A DNA stretch of 64,000 nt from Octopus vulgaris (taxonomy: Eukaryota). The stretch is taken from positions 97,588,001 to 97,652,000 of the forward strand of contig OX597818.1 in assembly GCA_951406725.2 (NCBI GenBank). The letters are read 5' to 3'. Shown here piece after piece: positions 18,797 through 50,380 of the stretch; position 1 is the stretch's first letter, and each line of letters opens with the position of its first letter. The translations under genes and the position numbers were made by a program. Under the pieces are notes generated by a model. It was not told the origin of the DNA. It did no database searches and saw nothing but the letters and a program-made list of their open reading frames with translations.

Positions 18797-19580
18797 GATA
18801 AAACGGTAAGATAACAAAAGAAAGAAAGAGACCTCAATATTATGTAAATAGAGGAAATTTATCTATACAATATGTTACATTACTCGGTAGTCAAGATAAA
18901 ACTCTGAGTTTCAGATGCCGAAGTGGAAATCCACAACACCATCTCTTCGGTTATCTGGCTATTTGAAAACGTTATGAAAAAATACCGTTAAAAATGAAGG
19001 GAAATTACTCTGTTATAACTCTGCTTTGCCTGCGTACTTATACATCGCTCGCATTTTTCGTCATAAAAATTATATAAAAATATATAAAAATATATAAAAA
19101 TATATAAAAATATATAAAATCTTCTTGGGACATAACACAGAAAGCATGTTCTATCCGTTTTCTTTAGGGGACCAAAAACGTAACAGAAATTTAGTCACAT
19201 GTGGGCATGATCCGAAAAGCTCTGTCCTTGTATTTAGACATGTGGTAGGGTCTAAGCTGCTTTTCCAGATAAGCCATCTCTCCATGTCGCATAAACCGCA
19301 CCTTCCGCTGCCATTAGTATAGGGCTTACATCTGGCCAAAATCTTCCATTGTATGTTATAATCGACACCTTTATCTCTTAAAGACCAAATATGATTGGAT
19401 AATTGTGTCGCTTTTCTTTTGTTCCAGTGCCTAAAGCTCAAAGTGTGGTTATTGAACCTGGCCTTGAAATTACCCTCTGTCAGGCCCACGTATTTCTTCG
19501 TCGAAACGGTGTCTTTAGTGGTTATAGAGTTTACGGTAGCTTCATATATGATGGTCTTGGACATGCAAGCTCCATTTAGC
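18797..19580 (-). mobile_element. Inverted second copy of the same PLE 3' end, with about 60 nt of extra tail
   Basis: 18860-19580 is the reverse complement of 19711-20431, with about 3 mismatches seen. Confidence 0.9.
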
Positions 19581-20431
19581 AACTCTTCAATAGACACAAT
19601 TTAAAAATTAGTTTTAGTTCAACTACCAATTTTAAAAACATAATCAATCATAACATACAAAAAACACAAGAAGAAAACAGCTGTTCATGCAGGAATAAAG
19701 AATTGTGCCCGCTAAATGGAGCTTGCATGTCCAAGACCATCATATATGAAGCTACCGTAAACTCTATAACCACTAAAGACACCGTTTCGACGAAGAAATA
19801 CGTGGGCCTGACAGAGGGTAATTTCAAGGCCAGGTTCAATAACCACACTTTGAGCTTTAGGCACTGGAACAAAAGAAAAGCGACACAATTATCCAATCAT
19901 ATTTGGTCTTTAAGAGATAAAGGTGTCGATTATAACATACAATGGAAGATTTTGGCCAGATGTAAGCCCTATACTAACGGCAGCGGAAGGTGCGGTTTAT
20001 GCGACATGGAGAGATGGCTTATCTGGAAAAGCAGCTTAGACCCTACCACATGTCTAAATACAAGGACAGAGCTTTTCGGATCATGCCCACATGTGACTAA
20101 ATTTCTGTTACGTTTTTGGTCCCCTAAAGAAAACGGATAGAATATGCTTTCTGTGTTATGTCCCAAGAAGATTTTATATATTTTTATATATTTTTATATA
20201 TTTTTATGTATTTTTATATAATTTTTATGACGAAAAATGCGAGCGATGTATAAGTACGCAGGCAAAGCAGAGTTATAACAGAGTAATTTCCCTTCATTTT
20301 TAACGGTATTTTTTCATAACGTTTTCAAATAGCCAGATAACCGAAGAGATGGTGTTGTGGATTTCCACTTCGGCATCTGAAACTCAGAGTTTTATCTTGA
20401 CTACCGAGTAATGTAACATATTGTATAGATA
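19581..20431 (+). mobile_element. Penelope-like element 3' end: Cys-rich linker, GIY-YIG endonuclease and 3' UTR
   Basis: Open frame LFNRHNLKISFS...CSCRNKELCPLNGAC...IIYEATV...YVGLTEGNFKARFNNH...CGLCDME...LNTRTELFGSCPH, with stop at 20140. Confidence 0.9.
20335..20397 (+). ncRNA. Minimal type I hammerhead-like motif in the PLE 3' UTR (mirror copy at 18894-18956, minus strand)
   Basis: AGATAA-CCGAAGA-stem II (GATG..GTGGA/TCCAC..CATC)-T-GAAA-CT CAG AG-T-T-TTATCT. Stem I is AGATAA/TTATCT. The core is variant (U4C and an extra T). Confidence 0.6.
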
Positions 20432-20647
20432 TATAATATATATATATATAATATACATATATATATATATAATATATATATATATAATATACATATATAT
20501 ATATATATATATAATATACATATATATATATATAATATACATATATATATATATCATCATCAATATATATAGATATAATATACATATATATATATAGATA
20601 TAGATATAATATACATATATATATATATAATATACATATATATATAT

Positions 20648-28860: not shown

Positions 28861-30241
28861 CTACAACAAAACAAATAAAGATCATTTTAGTGAAATAATA
28901 AATCTTTAAGTGATTAGAGTTACATATTATGTTATACACAACACCACTTGTATAACTGTGATGTTCATTTACAATCATCACTTAATGACAAAAAAAAAGG
29001 GTAGACACACACAACAGGCTTCTTTTAGTTTTCATAAACAAAATCAGTTCAGAAGAGCTATAACACAAAATACTTGCCCAAAGTGCTGCACAGTGGAACT
29101 GATCCTGAAATCAAATGGTTGGGAGGCAAGCTTTTTAACCACACACACATCTGTCTGTCTCTCTCTCTCTCTCTATGTGTATATACTTTTATTTGTTTCA
29201 GTCATTTGACTGTGACCATGCTGGAGCACCGCCTTTAGTTGAACAAATCGACCCCAGGACTTGTTCTTTGTAAGTCTGGTACTTATTCTATTGGTCTCTT
29301 TTGCCGAACTGCTAAGTTATGGGGATGTAAACACACCAACATTGATTGTCAAGTGATGGTGGCGGGGAGACAAACATAATATACACACACACACAAATAC
29401 ATACATATAAAAGGGTAAAAACGAGTAAAGACCTTCTTCAGTCATGAATGACTAAGAAATTGCACCTAGAAATTTCCCCTCTGAGGCACAAGTCCAGGCA
29501 AGGTGGTTTATGGAAGACCAATAGTCACTCATGCATACAAGCCTCCCTTCTGTATGCTACCAATGTTATCCAAGGGAAAAGTAAAGGCCAATACAGCTTG
29601 GCACCCATCATGTTGCAAGTCAACTGGAGTGAATTGGAGCAATGTAAAGTGTCTGTCTCAAAAACACAACACACATCCTGGTCCCAGAATCGAACTCACT
29701 ACCTTATGATTGTGAGCTCGAAACTGAACCATGTGCTTTCAAACACACACATACACTCGCACACACATATGTGTTCACGTGAAAAGCACCTGTGCTGCTG
29801 CCACAAAAAAACTCCCAGTACACTCTGTAAAGTAGTTGCTATTAGGAAGGGTATCCTGCCATAGATACCTATTTCTTTATTAGGCACAAGGGGCTAAACA
29901 CAGAGGAGACAAACAAGGACAGACAAATGGATTAAGTCGGTTATATCGACCCCAGTGCATAACTGGTACTTATTTAATCGAGCCCGAAAGGATGAAAGGC
30001 AAAGTCGACCTCGGCGGAATTTGAACGCAGAACGTAACGGCAGACGAAATATGGCTACGCATTTTGCCCGGCGTGCTAACGTTTCTGCCAGCTCGCCGCC
30101 TTAATACCATAGATACCATATAAAACCAGACAACAGGGCCTGGTGCAGCTCTCTGGTTAGCCAGCTCCTGTTAAACTGTCCAACCCATGTCAGCATGGAA
30201 AATGAACATTAAATGATGATGATGATGATGAATTTCATTAC

Positions 30242-30414: not shown

Positions 30415-31415
30415 CTGACAAAAGAAAAATCAAAAAAAAATTAATGGCCACTGCGAGGTTATGCATAATTTTAAGTCAATGTCTTTATTACTTAATAACC
30501 AATGTTTGGAGAACAATGAGAAAGTTTGGTTGTTTAAATTATCCCACAAAAGTGAAGCATAGGCATGGCTTTGTGGTTATGAAGCTTACTTCCCAATTAT
30601 GTGATCTTGGGTTCAATCTCACTGTCTGACACCTGGGGCTGGTGTCTTCTACTATAGCATCGGGCCGGCCAAAGTCTTGTAAGTGGATATGGTAGACAGA
30701 AATTGAAAGGTGGCAAGCTGGCAGAAACGTTAACAAGTTGGGCAAAATGCTTAGCAGTATTTCTTCTGCTGTTATGTTCTGAGTTATGTTCTGTTATGTT
30801 CATCCTTTTGGGGTCGACAAATTAAGTATCAGTTATGCACTGGGTCAATGTAATCGACTTAATCCCTTTGTCTGTCCTTGTTTGTCCCCTCTATGTTTAG
30901 CCCCTTGTGGGCAATAAAGAAATAAGAAATATAAACTTCCTTGGAAATAGATAATAGATGATGACATGAAGAGCATCTGATGAGAGAAAATCTGCTTCAG
31001 CGAACTCTGTCCAAGCCATACAAGCATGAAAGAGTGGAGGTGTGGAGGTTAAAATGATGATGATATTTAATATTTGTTTTTATGTGAAGTTTTATATAAA
31101 TACAATCTACAAAGAAGCTTACACAGTACTTTTTATTAGAGTACACACTAATTTTTACAAGGAAAAGTTGACAGTGACTTTGAAGTTTTAGCTTGCTCAC
31201 AGTCATCAGACTGTCTGAGGACAGTGAGAAATCCAAAACGTCAAAGTCACTGTCAATCTTTTCCAATTAAAAATTAGGCTGTGTGGTAAGAAGCTTACTT
31301 CCCAATCACATGGTTTCAGGTTCAGTCCCACTGTGTGGGACTATGGGTAAGTGTCTTCTACTATATCATTGAGCTGTGAGTGGATTTGGTAGACAGAAAC
31401 TGAAAGAAGCTTGTC

Positions 31416-33892: not shown

Positions 33893-34746
33893 CTTTATAT
33901 GACAAAGAAGTAAAAAATTGAATAATAAAGACAATCCGAAAAATAGTTACAAGAGTGCATGAGTGCATATGTGTGAAAATGTAGAAGCAGTAGAGTGCCA
34001 CACTAAATTCTTGGCAGTATGGATGCATTCATACACATGCACACACATATACACAAATACACACACATAATATATTTCTTTATTGCCCACAAGGGGCTAA
34101 ACATAGAGGAGACAAACAAGGACAGATAAAGGGATTAAGTCGATTACATCGACCCCAGTGCGTAACTGGTACTTTATTTATTGACCCCGAAAATATGAAA
34201 GGCAAAGTCGACCTCGGCAGAATTTGAACTCAGAACATAACAGCAGATGAAATACCTATTTCTTTACTACCTACAAGCGGCTAAACACAGAGAAGACAAA
34301 CAAGGACAAAGGGATTAAGTTGATCATATCGACCCCAGTGCGTAACTGGTACTTATTTAATCGACCCCGAAAGGATGATAGGCAAAGTTGACCTCGGCGG
34401 AATTTGAACTCAGAACGTAACGGCAGACGAAATACTGCTAAGCATTTTGCCCGGTGTGCTAACGTTTCTGCCAGCTCACCGCCTTCACACACACAGTGTA
34501 TATAGGTATGTATGTGCATATCTTTGTGTTTGACCCCAATTGCTGAATAACTGGCATTGGTTTGTTTATGTCCCTGTAATGTAGCAATCTAGCAACAAAA
34601 GACTAATAGAATAAGTGCCAGGTATTGGAGAAATAAAAGAACAGAGGCTGATTTGATAGACTTTTAGGTGGTGCTCCAGCATGACCACAGCCCAATGACA
34701 GAAACAAGTAAAAGAATAAAAGTATGCATGAAGGGAGGATACTTAC

Positions 34747-35914
34747 TTAATGCCAATTTCTTTAAGGTCGTTGTCTGTGAGGGAAAGAAAAACTTGCAGG
34801 TCAACATCTTGTTCTTCAAATACAGGTAAATATTTTAAGAGTCCAAGCTGTTGCAAAAGTTCAACAAGGGTTTGAGGTTTATCTGAAGGTATATCAGATG
34901 GGGTCACTGAAATAGGTAGATTGGGTGAATCTACAGGGTTTACATTTCTAGTCTGTAGAGTGGCAGGGGGACAATTTGGATTATTTTGCATGTCATCTGT
35001 AAAGAGACTGTCATTATTGTTGTTGTTGCTACTGTGAGATGGCAGCCATTGTTGTGAAAACGAATCTAATTTATCACCAAAATATAATTCCCTCACTACA
35101 TTACTTTCACTCACAGCAGGAAAGTTTGTTGGTGGAGCAACCCCACCTAAGTTGGCAGATAAAAAGTGTAGATGGTTTTGATCAAGTTTATCAGAGGGAA
35201 AATCTGATTCATTTTGTGATGGCGATCTGTGCATAAGAAATTGACCTGCTGTATTATTATCATGTTGAATCACAGGGAAATTTGCATATTGTCCAGCAAG
35301 GTTTGATGTTCTAGTGTATGGATCAACTATTAAATCCGAGGGACAAATTGATAGAGGAGAACCGATACAAGAATCCAGATTCTGTGACATTTGTTCCTTG
35401 CCAGGAAAGGATTTCATTTCATTGTGTTCAGGCTGATGTGGAGTAAAATGTCTTTTGGCGCTGTCACTTTGGATTTTATATTGAGTATCCAAATAAAACA
35501 GATTCCTATCATGATTTGAGTTAAGAACTGAATCACCAGATATTGTACCCCAAGTCAAACGGCAAGGATCAGAAGAATAACCTCGGTTTAGCTGGTTGTT
35601 TGAAGAACTTATCTCTAGATGTGCAAGACCAAGTGCATCATCTCTAGGTACCTTCAACATCTCTTTTGGAATCACAGAGGGCTGAGATAGGGTTTGATGG
35701 GCTCGTTCTTTTGAGAGCTTACCAGATACATACTCATGTTTTGGCAAAAGACTCTTGGGAAATGATGAACTTACAATATCATCACTGTCTGAGCTATTAC
35801 TATGACTAAGTTGCAAAGCTGCAGCAAGACCACCACTGGAGCCTGAACTACTTTTGATAGTCAAAGCCCCAGTCTGAGAAAACACTGTACTTTCATCTTC
35901 ATTATCACAAGAAT
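34747..35914 (-). CDS. ANKS3: ANKS3 coding exon 9 (long Ser-rich linker and most of the SAM domain)
   Basis: 1168-nt open frame ending [43 protein letters not shown] (SAM). tttcAG/GTAAG boundaries, phase 1 to 2. Confidence 0.93.
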
Positions 35915-37099
35915 CTGAAACAAGAAACAAAGACATGATTTCAGTATCATATTAACAAGAGAGACTGTTTAACTGTTTAACATTCCTGTAATGATGTTAA
36001 TTATCCTCCAAAACATAGAACTGGTATTTTCTGTGAGTCACATTGTCTCATAGTAAATAAGAAAGATAATATCTAGCGTTATACATTGATACAGAACATA
36101 GCTGTGGGGTAAAACCACTTTCCATAATTACTGGTAATATAAATTTAAAGGGTAAATGTATTAAAATCATTAGACAATTATGAGTTATAGAGGGCCCAAA
36201 ATCCCTAATGAAATTTCTAACTATATTTTAGATGACTCATTTATCATTAAAAATTAAATAAAGATGTCTTTTAAGTAAGTCCTGAAGAATTTTTTGCTAT
36301 TGATATTCACCTGAATTTTCATAACAAAATGAAGGTAATAAAAAGATTTTTCTCTTTAATAGGATGTTGGCTTAGCTCAAATGAAATTGGAACCAGATGG
36401 TCTGGTACCCCTTACTAACAGCAAGGTGGATTTGGATGATGCAGAATTAAGTGTTATGTCTAAAACATGTAATGAAATCTGCAATAGTTTTTAAACTTTC
36501 TGTTGGCTGTCAATACCTTATAAACTTGTCTTTGAGATATGAAGTTGAAGAATTAATATATTGATTCTTCTGTATCCTCCACAATATAACACTTTGTTGT
36601 GCACCAGGCTCCATCGTCTTCTTTGGCATAGTTTCTATGCCCTTCTTAATACCAATCACTTTACAAAATGTACTTGGTGCATTTCATGTGGTACCAGGAG
36701 CAGTGAGGTCACCAAACAAACAAGACCCTTCAGCTGAAGGATGAGTGGTATTAATGGAGCTGAGTTTGTGCCAGGTGATGAGAGGTCAGAGTATGAATAG
36801 AGGGACAGAAATAGGTGTCTTGCAGTAAAGGGGATACCTGCTTACTCCAGCTGGACAGAGAAAAGAAAGAAGGAGAGGAAGAGAGAGAGACAGGAGGAGA
36901 GAGAGAAAGAGGAGAGCAAGAAGATGATGTGACAAGGAGGTACATTCAAAATACAGGGAGGTGTGTACATTCAAAATACAAGGAGGTGTGTATAAGGGCT
37001 GGAGAGGGTGAATTGATGGGTGGGTTAGTTTGTGAGATTGAGTATAGTAGTGGAAATCAGCTGTCTAGCGGATGTTAACATGAAGCTAAAGAAAATAGC

Positions 37100-45870: not shown

Positions 45871-46936
45871 AGATCGGTCATGATGGATATTTAAAACTAT
45901 ACTTTTCGGATAAATATACCCACTCTGACAGATACACGAGTGCATCTTTTCCCTGACTTATGGCCTCTTAGACGACTCACGCGTACTGTTGTATTTCGGG
46001 ACGGTCATTTTTTTTTGCCAAATAAACACACGCACTATATATTCATTCTTAGCAGTAATACCTGTCATTGAGTAGGTAATTACTTTTTCTGTTTCTCGGG
46101 CCGAGAAGCTAGAAAAATAGGTATACCACATAGAAGAATAGCTTTACAGAAACCGGTTGACTGTGATGGCACTGAAAAGGCTGCAGGTCACGTGGAACAT
46201 CACTTCATATAGAAAAATCATTGCACGTTGTGCGTTTGTTTGGTGTTCGTTCTTTGACGGTCTCTCTTTTTTTTTTTAGTAGACATTTTTTTGATTAGGA
46301 ATATCAGTAAGTAATAGTGAAATGAAATTACAAATGTTGTGTCCCGTTAGTGTTAGCACTGAAATTTCGATGCTATATTACGGGAATGGAAGCCAAGGCT
46401 ACAGTAAGTAACAGTCCAATGAAATTACAAATGCTGTGTCCTGTAAGTCAGATTTAGGTTTACTTGTATGTGTATATTATATAAGAGAAAAACATGTAAT
46501 AATTGAAGTGGAAAAACGATGGATTTCATATACGAACTTCTGTTTGTTCTTCATATGGCGAAAGAAAGTGGTATAAGAAATTGTAAGAGCTTAAATTTGA
46601 ATGGGACATTTGATCATATAACTGGTATGTGAGGAACGAAGATAGTATCACGTTTACCACTAGTGAGAATATTTGCTTCAGTGCAGTTCGTCATAGGTTT
46701 GTGCACAAGTAGTGTCGCCTCCCTTGAATCACTTACCTTCAATTTATGGGACAAACACACAAATGGATAGAATCTCTCTTTTATATATATACATACGTAC
46801 GTACAAAGGGTGCGGTGGGTAAATTGTCACCAGTTTTTATTTTTTATTTCACGCACGCGCATTGTTTGTCTTTGATTTTGTCGACTACACAGTATGTTAA
46901 AGTCAGTTAGGCACTGTCTGTGAGAAAGACAACACC

Positions 46937-48607
46937 CTGAGTTCGGTCGTGTTTTTTTTACGCTCGTAAAATTCGGTAAAAAAGATCAGAAAGAATTGTT
47001 GTTGTTGTGGAAATTTTGAACGGCGTTGAGGCGGTTTCGCGTTTTCGCTGGTTCTGCGCGTTACACTTTTTCTGTTTTGGCGGCCGTTTTTCGGCCTGTC
47101 AGACAGGAGGAAATGGATGACCACTCCCTAGCGGAGGAATCGGAGGAGGAATGGATATTTGAGAACTTGTCGGAGACATCGAACTCTGAAGACGAGCAAA
47201 TCGGTGATGTAAATAATGTGGAGATAAAAAACAGGAAAACGTACGCAGGAGTTGCAAAAAAGAAGACGGCACAGGAAAAGGAAATAAACCTAGGAAAATT
47301 GCCAGGTTTCCAGAGGTATATGAGGAAGGACAGCGGCGAGGTGGAACTGGAACCACCACCAAAGAGAAAGGAATGGTACAATAAGAGGACCATTATTTAC
47401 AGGGTGTTCGCGAACGAAAGAAAGAAAATAGAGGTTGTAAACATGGAGTGGATAGAGGAGGCCCTGAGAAGATCGGAGGAGGAAATCATTTTTCTGACTC
47501 GAGGATCGAAGTACGGTACTGTAGTGGTACATTTTAAAAGTGAGACTGCAGCGAGGAAGATGGCGGTGAAGGCGGTGAAGTCAGAAAAGGTAACACTTTT
47601 ACCTATGTATTTGAATAGAAGGATTACACGAGTGAGGGTGGAGGGAGTGCCACCAAACGTTGAGGCAGAGTGGATTGTGGCGGCTGTGATCAGCGGCCAC
47701 GAGGAGGAAGTGGATATTCTCCATGCCTCGGTTAAGACCGAGGGCTGGAGAGGCGTAACAGTGGAGCTGAACGTGCAGGCAGAAAACGAGGTACTGGTGG
47801 ACCTGGTGGAAAGCATCAGATTGGGAGACGTGATTATGAGAGTGTGGGTGGAGGGCAGAGCTCCACGTTGTTACAAGTGTGGCCTGAGGGGCCACATAAG
47901 AGCCTTCTGCCCTCCCCCACCAAGAGAAAAGGAAATCGTTGAGGAAGCTCCAAAAGAGGAGGCCCCAAAAGAGGAAGAAATTAAAGAGAAGCAGACGGAA
48001 AGGGAAACGACAGAGGAGGAGGAGATGCAAAAAGAGTGGGAGGAGGGCAGAAAGAAGAGAAAAGGAAAGAAAAGGAAAAACTGTGCGAAGCCCCAACCCA
48101 CCCCAACACCACCCACACCCTTGGAGACCCATCCTGCCCCTGCAAACAGCGATTCCACCCACTCCCCGCCTACAAGAAAAACGAAAACAGACACACAGAA
48201 CATACAAAGGCCCAAGTCCTACTTTTTATGTGTTGTGAGGAAGGGGGATACCGAGAACGCAAGAAGGATTTTTGAGGACGATGTATGGCAAGAGTATGAA
48301 GACGGTAGCTACGCGGTGTTTGATTTTGAACTTATGGGCTCTTTGATGAGCAAGTGTAATGAACTGCGTATAAATTGTTTGTCAGCGTATATGAAGGATG
48401 ATATGATAGAGAGGTATGAAAGAGAAATGAAGGGTGAGGTAAAAGACTTTGGAATTGTGATAGGAAACGGAAAGGTAAGTGATGCTTTCATATTATCATT
48501 TTTTTCATTTTAACATTCATTTACTCATAATTTTAATCACATTGTTTTATATCCCCCATGTCTTGTAATGTTTCCTCTTCGTAGCCCCTAGTGGGTAATA
48601 AAGAAAT
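46937..48607 (+). mobile_element. ORF1-only non-LTR retroelement (HAL1-like architecture)
   Basis: Perfect 14-bp TSD AGAAAGACAACACC at 46923-46936 and 48608-48621. One ORF and no RT. The 3' end reads tagcccctagtgggtAATAAAGAAAT. Confidence 0.85.
47113..48513 (+). CDS. Intact L1/Tx1-type ORF1 (gag-like) protein, 466 aa, with an RRM-like region and a CCHC zinc knuckle
   Basis: Uninterrupted ORF. Motifs include TYAGVAK, YGTVVVHFKSETAARK, TRVRVEGVPP and RVWVEGRAPRCYKCGLRGHIRAFCP (CX2CX4HX4C), followed by acidic/basic and Pro-rich tracts. Confidence 0.85.
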   Translation: MDDHSLAEESEEEWIFENLSETSNSEDEQIGDVNNVEIKNRKTYAGVAKKKTAQEKEINLGKLPGFQRYMRKDSGEVELEPPPKRKEWYNKRTIIYRVFANERKKIEVVNMEWIEEALRRSEEEIIFLTRGSKYGTVVVHFKSETAARKMAVKAVKSEKVTLLPMYLNRRITRVRVEGVPPNVEAEWIVAAVISGHEEEVDILHASVKTEGWRGVTVELNVQAENEVLVDLVESIRLGDVIMRVWVEGRAPRCYKCGLRGHIRAFCPPPPREKEIVEEAPKEEAPKEEEIKEKQTERETTEEEEMQKEWEEGRKKRKGKKRKNCAKPQPTPTPPTPLETHPAPANSDSTHSPPTRKTKTDTQNIQRPKSYFLCVVRKGDTENARRIFEDDVWQEYEDGSYAVFDFELMGSLMSKCNELRINCLSAYMKDDMIERYEREMKGEVKDFGIVIGNGKVSDAFILSFFSF

Positions 48608-50147
48608 AGAAAGACAACACCATGACGCAATTCACCCTGCCAGAAATTTGGAAACGACATGCTGTACTGCTTGGCATTCGCGCCGGAAGCTCAAATACGA
48701 ACATTTCAGAGTGTTTAGGTATCAATAAGAGGACATGTACCAAGAATGAGAAAAATCAAACATCCAGTCAACATCATGGTGTTTGGAGTGATCTCTAGTG
48801 ACGGCGGCATTATGCTTCCATTCATCTTCCCACACGGCCTCAAACTCAACACGGAGACCTACATGAAGTGCCTGGAGAAGGTAGTGCTGCCCTGGGTCAA
48901 GAGGGTGGCTAGGCAACAGGACTCTGCACCATGCCACACAAGCAGGAGAACCCAGTCATAGCTGTCAGACAATTTCTGCGACCACATCACCCCTAACATC
49001 TGGCTACCTAACTCTCCAGACTGTAATCCCCTTGATTATTATGTGTGGGGCGCAGTTGAGCGAGAGACCAACAAAACTCCTTGTAACACCAAAGATGAAC
49101 TGAAGGCAAGGATTAGGGCAGCATTCACCAACTTAAACAATGAGACTGACCAGAAGAGTTGCTGGAGATTCTAAAGTCGTCTGGAGGCCGTGGTTGAAGC
49201 CAATTGCAATTTTATTGAACAAATATACTCATTAGTATTTCAAGATATTTTTTATGTAATTTTGGTAAATATATCTATAAAAATGAGATGCCAATGTTAT
49301 TTTTATCCAGGACTTGCTAGTCATGCACTGCATGTCCGTTGGTTTTTTTTTTTTATATAACTCAAAAATTATTTTAAAAACATAATGTATTTATAACCAC
49401 ATTGAAAAGTTGTCCAAATCATTGGAAACTGAGCTAAAATAGTTAATTTGCTTTAAAGGAAACCCGTCCTGATTGATACTTCGCTGTATTCCCATTTTGC
49501 TTCCTCTGGGTATGCTTTAAGAAAAACGTATATGAAATCTTTTGTACCCTCCCCCACTTCCTATCTTTAAATAGCTATCATTTCTCTTCTGCCTATCTGT
49601 AAAGTCAATGCCTGTAAGATTTTTTTTTCCTTGATAAAGTAACTGCTGAAGTCATGCTTTTGATGAAGGCGAATGTTAAGCTTTGATCTCCCCTCCTTTT
49701 CTATCAGTTCGTCTTTGTCAACCCGTAAAAGTTCTGACCAATACATATCAACAATCTCATAATTCTTAATTAGTTAGCTCAAATGTTTGGAATATCTTTC
49801 TACCGAAATTACCTGATTTGCGAATCTACAAGAAATTCATGAGACAATTTCAGTTTAATTTGTATGAAAAGAAAAAATTAGTTAACTGGTAGTGTTACGC
49901 TTAGTGGTTAGGGTGTCAGCATCATGATCGTAAGACTGTGGTTTCGATTCCTGGACCGGGCGACGCGTTGTGTTCTTGAGCAAAACACTTCATTTCACGT
50001 TGCTCCAGTCCACTCAGCTGGCGAAAATGAGTAACACTGCGATGGACTGGCGTCCCGTCCAGCTGGCGAACACATACGCCGTAGAAACCAAGAAACCAGG
50101 CCCATGAGCCTGGCTAGGCTTTAAAAGGGCGCATTTATTTATAAAAT

Positions 50148-50380
50148 GCCGGCGAGCTGGAAGAAACGTTAGCACGCCGGGCGAAATGCGTAGCCGTATT
50201 TCATCTGGCATTACGTTCTGAGTTCAAATTCCGCCGAGGTCGACTTTACCTTTCATCCTTTCAGGGTCGATAAATTAAGTACCAGTTACGCACTGGGGTC
50301 GATGTAATCGACTTAATCCGTTTGTCTGTCCTTGTTTGTCCCTTCTGTGTTTAGCCCCTTGTGGGTAGTTAAGAAATAGG
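50148..50380 (+). mobile_element. tRNA-derived SINE family A (Meta-domain-like). Other copies at about 1-290(+), 9990-10180(-), 25720-25935(-), 26490-26705(-), 29868-30103(-), 30708-30930(+), 34073-34485(-), 39517-39730(+), 42722-42935(+), 57670-57850(-), 58470-58680(-), 59300-59490(-), 62560-62760(+)
   Basis: Consensus ggcgagctgg.agaaacgttagc...gagttcaaattcc (B-box)...gcctttcatcctttcggggtcgataaattaagtaccag. Two alternative 3' tails occur. Confidence 0.85.

Follow-up and report, generated by a model that had tools for sequence, protein, structure and literature searches.

A common 3′ tail lacking poly(A) on L1/Tx1-group LINEs, an ORF1-only element and an abundant SINE of Octopus vulgaris

The principal feature of the window (the whole 64 kb stretch of Octopus vulgaris DNA that was analysed) is an ORF1-only insertion whose 3′ tail recurs on nearby copies of a short interspersed repeat, SINE family A (Table 1). 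The insertion lies in a host repeat that translates as a decayed transposase, presumably Tc1/mariner-like to judge from one motif; a Pfam search with the flanking transposase pieces produced no match. Contigs from three of four public runs join position 46922 directly to position 48608 and so represent the empty form of this host repeat. Contigs of presumably RNA-derived runs also cover the element, although they carry no information on its expression or on RNA ends. The 14 bp target-site duplications (TSDs) enclose the tail, and hence the tail belongs inside the insertion. A tblastn search of the 1671 bp unit with six ORF2 proteins identified no ORF2 remnant (best E value 0.25). Elsewhere in the window, what we take to be the 3′ fragment of a CR1-like LINE (1000–1700) has another end, without the common tail. 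An inverted repeat at 18837–20454 (744 bp, 99% complementary) resembles what is presumably an inverted Penelope end, each arm carrying the same 137-residue ORF with a weak GIY-YIG match, and a long exon-like ORF at 34743–35936 on the reverse strand, ending in a SAM domain, is part of a host gene.

Table 1. Positions in the window of the ORF1-only insertion, its parts and the copies of the common tail.
Feature	Position	Strand	Basis
Left TSD, 14 bp	46923..46936	+	Direct repeat
ORF1-only non-autonomous retroelement, 1671 bp, without ORF2 remnant	46937..48607	+	TSD-bounded
ORF1, 466 residues, predicted tandem RRM-like domains and one CCHC knuckle	47113..48513	+	
Pyrimidine-rich block of the common tail	48560..48583	+	Tail alignments
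Tail of the ORF1-only element	48583-48607	+	Pattern match
Predicted hairpin, 4 bp, 5 nt loop	48584..48596	+	Pairing tests
A-rich terminus AATAAAGAAAT, without poly(A)	48597..48607	+	Sequence
Right TSD, 14 bp	48608..48621	+	Direct repeat
Host repeat, decayed transposase, presumably Tc1/mariner-like	48622..49220	+	Translation
SINE family A copy with tail	30708..30923 (start approximate)	+	
Tail of SINE family A	30899-30923	+	Pattern match
SINE family A copy with tail	50149..50377 (start approximate)	+	
Tail of SINE family A	50353-50377	+	Pattern match
Tail of SINE family A copy	29871-29895	-	Pattern match and aligned copies
Tail of SINE family A copy	34074-34098	-	Pattern match and aligned copies
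Tail of SINE family A, downstream unit of a tandem SINE	34258-34282	-	Pattern match and aligned copies

A search of the window with a 25 nt tail pattern, allowing up to three mismatches, gave six matches compared with none in 100 shuffles, and all six agree with the tail positions proposed in a preliminary description of this DNA. The pyrimidine-rich segment that the same description placed before the tail is likewise seen in the aligned copies, which are alike for ∼45–50 nt upstream, into such a block, where their similarity ends. In an alignment of 26 tails the pyrimidine block and the A-rich end are the best-conserved columns; in the SINE the AATAAA is variable, with G at the second position in 43 of 61 copies. 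A run of eight or more A residues after the element end was observed in none of 30 ORF1-only copies, 30 SINE copies and 122 ends of autonomous LINEs (the last count including copies fetched twice). Exceptions outside these counts are two ORF1-only ends followed by an A-run (L025 and one array unit) and LINE group C, which ends in ATT repeats. Poly(A) is nearly absent from copies of all three classes, and LINEs, the ORF1-only derivative and the abundant SINE have in common a poly(A)-less tail of ∼45 nt.

SINE family A is short and non-coding, has a high copy number and carries TSDs and a LINE-like tail. Its tail-proximal 32 nt pattern has 67,615 exact matches in the genome, with none for the reversed control. 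Clean TSDs of 11–15 bp were found at five of 30 sampled loci, and the first bases of all five extend the SINE end; tandem units of 184 bp account for many of the remaining loci. By eye only, the SINE head contains motifs resembling the A and B boxes of a putative tRNA-derived Pol III SINE, and neither ARAGORN nor Rfam gave a match. A second SINE-like family with a different 3′ end is located at 49885–50140, immediately 5′ of a copy of family A.

At least 92 related ORF1 matches, from 91 scored candidates, were identified across the 2.8 Gb genome, and a pattern for the ORF1-only subfamily has 49 exact matches genome-wide. The tail is present at 30 of 30 loci in each of two samples (one drawn from the ORF matches, the other from the subfamily pattern, with partial overlap), so that it is no stray SINE fragment. 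By crude automated calling, 16 of 30 ORF1-only loci have a repeat of at least 9 nt on both sides; these include three array junctions, the window copy and some 9-mers that possibly arose by chance. That the tail of the ORF1 element could be an independent SINE fragment missing from other copies had been raised in the preliminary description, and the sheer abundance of SINE family A would favour a fragment or a chance likeness. However, the upstream sequence and the loop variants of the ORF1-only tail are peculiar to it, and it scores 62–70 against LINE tails but only 56 against the SINE. An independent SINE fragment is ruled out by the position of the tail inside the TSD and its presence in all sampled ORF1-only copies, and this explanation as a whole is very improbable.

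The ORF1 product shows a weak match to the zf-CCHC profile (E value 0.064), and its CCHC knuckle is invariant across 24 aligned ORF1s. An AlphaFold model (mean pLDDT 73.4) is closest to tandem-RRM proteins (E value 7 × 10−6, with low TM-scores), and the neighbours of the protein in a protein atlas are zf-CCHC and ZCCHC3-type clusters, which provide a lead only. A set of 5.8 billion sequences contained no ORF1 homologue at E ≤ 0.001. With 31–42% identity, the window ORF1 is homologous to ORF1 of the autonomous LINEs. Over a 200-residue core in the main ORF1-only lineage, dN/dS is 0.10–0.16 where dS could be computed (dS is near saturation between subfamilies); ORF1 of this lineage is under purifying selection. 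An ORF1 homologous to that of the partner, no ORF2, the 3′ end of the partner and a TSD together give the element the character of a HAL1-like derivative. Placing the 11 ORF1-only rows on the ORF1 tree takes two changes, although the tree is compatible with a single origin. A second ORF1-only lineage, with ∼29% identity to the window protein and a group-A tail (L255:4202-5608, L080:7039-8496 and L258:3154-4146), is possibly of independent origin.

The preliminary description had postulated an unseen autonomous LINE with the same tail. Such LINEs exist, and the possibility that no autonomous element bears the tail falls away: copies with a full ORF1 and an ORF2 of ∼1130 residues carry it. A genome search for reverse transcriptase (RT)-encoding elements found the tail as the element's own end at 19 of 30 zf-RVT loci (the best 30 of at least 150 matches), a twentieth match belonging to a downstream SINE. 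Full-length LINEs that end in the tail encode a CCHC ORF1 and an intact ORF2 of 1125–1150 residues with APE endonuclease, RT and C-terminal zf-RVT domains. The tail was found in none of 15 RTE copies, all from one family, and in none of the top 30 RVT_1 matches, which are mostly one CR1-like family; for several of these RVT_1 controls the reading began at a premature stop. A metagenome scan with P0004 yielded no confirmed locus with the tail in another host.

The closest solved relative of the partner ORF2 is human L1 ORF2p (E value 2.1 × 10−69, compared with 1.1 × 10−25 for R2). In the RT phylogeny, the 12 RTs of the tailed groups and P0001 form one clade (support 100/99), which is separate from RTs of the same genome that we take to be RTE-like and CR1-like (97/96). 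With L1 well above R2 among the solved matches and the RTE-like and CR1-like RTs set apart in the tree, the RT is nearer to L1 than to any of these three types, and the partner LINE belongs to the L1/Tx1 group. None of the named animal Tx1 references (Xenopus Tx1, Keno and Kibi) was among the matches, and the sole match named 'TX1' (P0114) is a distant fungal protein that was labelled automatically; the grounds for the term 'Tx1' are thus the type of ORF1 and the target behaviour, the tested placement being that in the L1/Tx1 group. The ORF1 here has predicted RRM domains together with a CCHC knuckle, which we take to be a feature of the Tx1 clade. A preference for target sequences is common, but not universal, in that clade; here recurrent insertion sites are seen, but 35 of 119 ORF1-only ends and 26 of 34 group-A ends lie at unclassified sites.

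Among the LINE groups, group A (L061, L062 and L073) is the best-matching partner for the hairpin and the end. For the last 70 nt of the SINE, the score is highest with group D (78), lower with group A (70) and lowest with the ORF1-only tail (56), where shuffles reach at most 36. The SINE resembles group A in its hairpin and end, and groups D and F in its upstream block; since this block is closer to D and F than to A, the partner family of the SINE is not fixed, and the SINE tail may be a chimera or may be older than the LINE families. Group C comprises near-identical intact copies in tandem arrays with ∼5.87 kb spacing (e.g. G000:C50; C4:93.80-93.83 Mb) and is probably very young.

Human L1 selects RNA by poly(A). 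Since the three classes described here end in one tail without poly(A), it is likely that the LINE RT recognizes this tail, with its predicted hairpin, in copying the RNAs of all three. ORF2p would bind the pyrimidine block and the hairpin, and cDNA synthesis would start at the A-rich terminus, ∼11 nt beyond the stem, with short base pairing between this terminus and the nicked target. To be copied in trans, the SINE and the ORF1-only element would carry the tail. The latter could be an old internal-deletion derivative of the LINE, in which the retained RNA-binding ORF1 would package the element's own RNA while ORF2p is borrowed.

Alternatively, the AATAAA and hairpin could be a signal for RNA 3′-end formation or stability, with a relaxed RT priming through pairing of the target with the A-rich end and the tail being common by descent. 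The AATAAA corresponds to the canonical signal for poly(A) addition, and the five SINE TSDs that continue the SINE end fit priming by microhomology. However, copies stop ∼5 nt past the AATAAA with no poly(A), the SINE retains the tail even though AATAAA is missing from those 43 of 61 copies and a purely relaxed RT would leave the SINE no reason to have the tail of a LINE. This explanation is considered to be unlikely, and recognition of the tail by the LINE RT is preferred.

The preliminary description had assigned one hairpin tail to all three classes. The common tail stands; the stem (GCCC/GGGY, with a 5 nt loop) is only 4 bp long and is weak when taken alone. On its own, the stem-loop does not exceed shuffles in stability (z of −0.9 to −1.6), and the best fold of a 48 nt SINE window is another pairing. 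All four pairs are kept in 33 of 34 group-A LINE tails and 53 of 61 SINE tails; in a fixed register all stem pairs are kept in 72 of 118 ORF1-only tails, with a 1 nt loop insertion shifting the register in 37. The proposed covariation across the three classes was not borne out, as the only change among them is between G–C and G–U, with no two-sided compensation. RNAalifold gave no consensus pair for 26 MAFFT-aligned tails, in an alignment that placed the stem arms out of register, and stem length reached p < 0.05 in only six of 30 cluster representatives. A 3′ stem-loop common to LINE and SINE, which is a feature of the stringent type, is present with this weak stem.

Covariation appears only among diverged LINE families. 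The only criteria for calling LINE tails were the upstream block and AATAAA, with pairing left out of account; of 201 ORF2 ends, 122 were called, 78 were missed (including groups C and F, in which the spacing is different) and one was too short, and the tails fall into 30 clusters. The position of the stem before AATAAA is constant across these families but the letters differ (GCCC/GGGY, GATT/AATC, AATC/GATT, GATC/GATC, ACCT/AGGT, AACC/GGTT, ACC/GGT and GCC/GGC). Summed over 17 lineages, Watson–Crick pairs number 54 compared with 43.2 ± 2.8 when shuffled (two of 3000 shuffles reach 54), arm swaps between lineages reach 54 in 56–195 of 20000 and upstream UTR windows give 39.5 in the same pairing test, although the p-values are optimistic because the 17 lineages were hand-picked from the 30 clusters and are related. 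These results bear on a further explanation, in which the RT reads the sequence of the pyrimidine block and A-rich end and the hairpin is incidental. The conservation of the block and end across 26 tails and the weakness of the stem in RNAalifold and single-tail folding are in its favour, but the arms of each lineage pair better with their own partner than when swapped and at least eight different stem sequences occupy one place, which makes it quite improbable. The stem is probably under selection, as suggested by the wider LINE radiation and not by the three classes, and recognition of a structured tail remains the preferred model.

On a broader reading, these LINEs could form an animal L1/Tx1-type radiation that is stringent and independent of poly(A), in which family-specific stems would act as licences, each read by its own ORF2p. 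The group-A licence would have been acquired by one ancient ORF1-only lineage under selection, or perhaps by two, and also by a very common SINE, and the same machinery would stack mixed head-to-tail arrays. We regard this fuller picture as plausible, with doubt slightly outweighing confidence.

Stringent pairs of the L1 clade are known in maize (LINE1-1_ZM with ZmSINE2/3) and Chlamydomonas (L1-1_CR with SINEX-3_CR) (Ohshima, 2012, PMC3472496; PMC3747384); the accessible part of the former describes three SINEs with L1 tails in these two organisms, and that of the latter, a 2013 review, agrees and names no mollusc pair. The preliminary description had considered such a system to be unusual if its partner were of L1/Tx1 type, since L1 usually recognizes only poly(A); the group assignment holds and the premise is softened by these pairs (PMC3472496). 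As far as the accessible accounts go, they resemble the octopus system in combining an L1-clade LINE with a SINE through a common 3′ end (∼45–80 nt), and also in having a hairpin, variable stem letters and compensatory changes. The octopus system differs in being of animal L1/Tx1 type, in its almost complete lack of poly(A) and in its third, protein-coding passenger.

ORF1-only LINEs have been described as HAL1 (from L1), HeT-A (Jockey) and Ag-Sponge (CR1) (PMC5786205; PMC5753468), which likewise join an ORF1-bearing 5′ part to a LINE 3′ end without ORF2; in the accessible parts of these sources the type has repeated origins and its ORF1p is thought to act with the autonomous partner. By comparison with what is accessible there, the octopus element derives from a Tx1-type LINE with an RRM–CCHC ORF1, has a poly(A)-less tail of predicted structure in common with a SINE, and occurs in mixed head-to-tail arrays at interstitial positions. 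A case of a Tx1 LINE mobilizing a SINE is that of crocodilian Tx1-Mar and SINEU (Kojima, 2015, PMC4494074), with a similar preference for another repeat and tandem insertions around the TSD. Unlike the octopus SINE, SINEU has poly(A), and the accessible part of that report bases the link on target preference, not on the tail, with no LINE found to have the SINEU-1 3′ end (PMC4494074). For the stringent L2 elements UnaL2 and ZfL2-1/2, binding of the 3′ stem-loop by ORF2p has been shown experimentally (accessible part of PMC4176376); their stem-loop, common to SINEs, is a model for ORF2p recognition, although they belong to another clade and recognition in octopus is only inferred.

Two papers on SINEs of molluscs, in their accessible parts, identify CR1 and L2 as partners and leave further partners unassigned. 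The accessible part of an annotation of octopus repeats includes L1-Tx1 elements as well as SINEs, with the words 'partner' and 'tail' absent (PMC13282606), and that of PMC8967140 contains nothing further on partners. No prior report of the octopus three-class system was found in the openly accessible literature searched, and Repbase or Dfam may contain these families. ORF1-only LINEs and plant L1-clade pairs with tail-sharing SINEs are known separately, with no published animal case found. The proposal that tail specificity was the original state of L1-clade RTs, with relaxation to poly(A) coming later, rests on three plant and algal SINEs in the accessible part of PMC3472496. In the intact animal L1/Tx1-type LINEs the stem varies in a natural series, and passengers of two kinds accompany these LINEs; tail swaps between families could directly separate recognition of structure from recognition of sequence. 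In addition, the SINE, of which there are at least 67,615 copies, gains a probable driver, and the ORF1-only parasites now include a Tx1-type case.

ORF1-only units of mixed subfamilies also occur in head-to-tail arrays of ∼5 to more than 20 units (L244–L258 and L261–L266; e.g. G000:C10:47668000-47707999), some of which end at an autonomous LINE. Some array junctions are direct tail-to-head, and others have a copy of the TSD between units. Insertions recur in a repeat that resembles a decayed ORF1 (L271–L300; 1,113 exact pattern matches), with four arrays starting at one spot in it; of 30 sampled copies, two are filled, three have deletions and 25 are empty. ORF1-only insertions are also found in the SINE head, at three of 119 ends (e.g. 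L012, L349 and L350).
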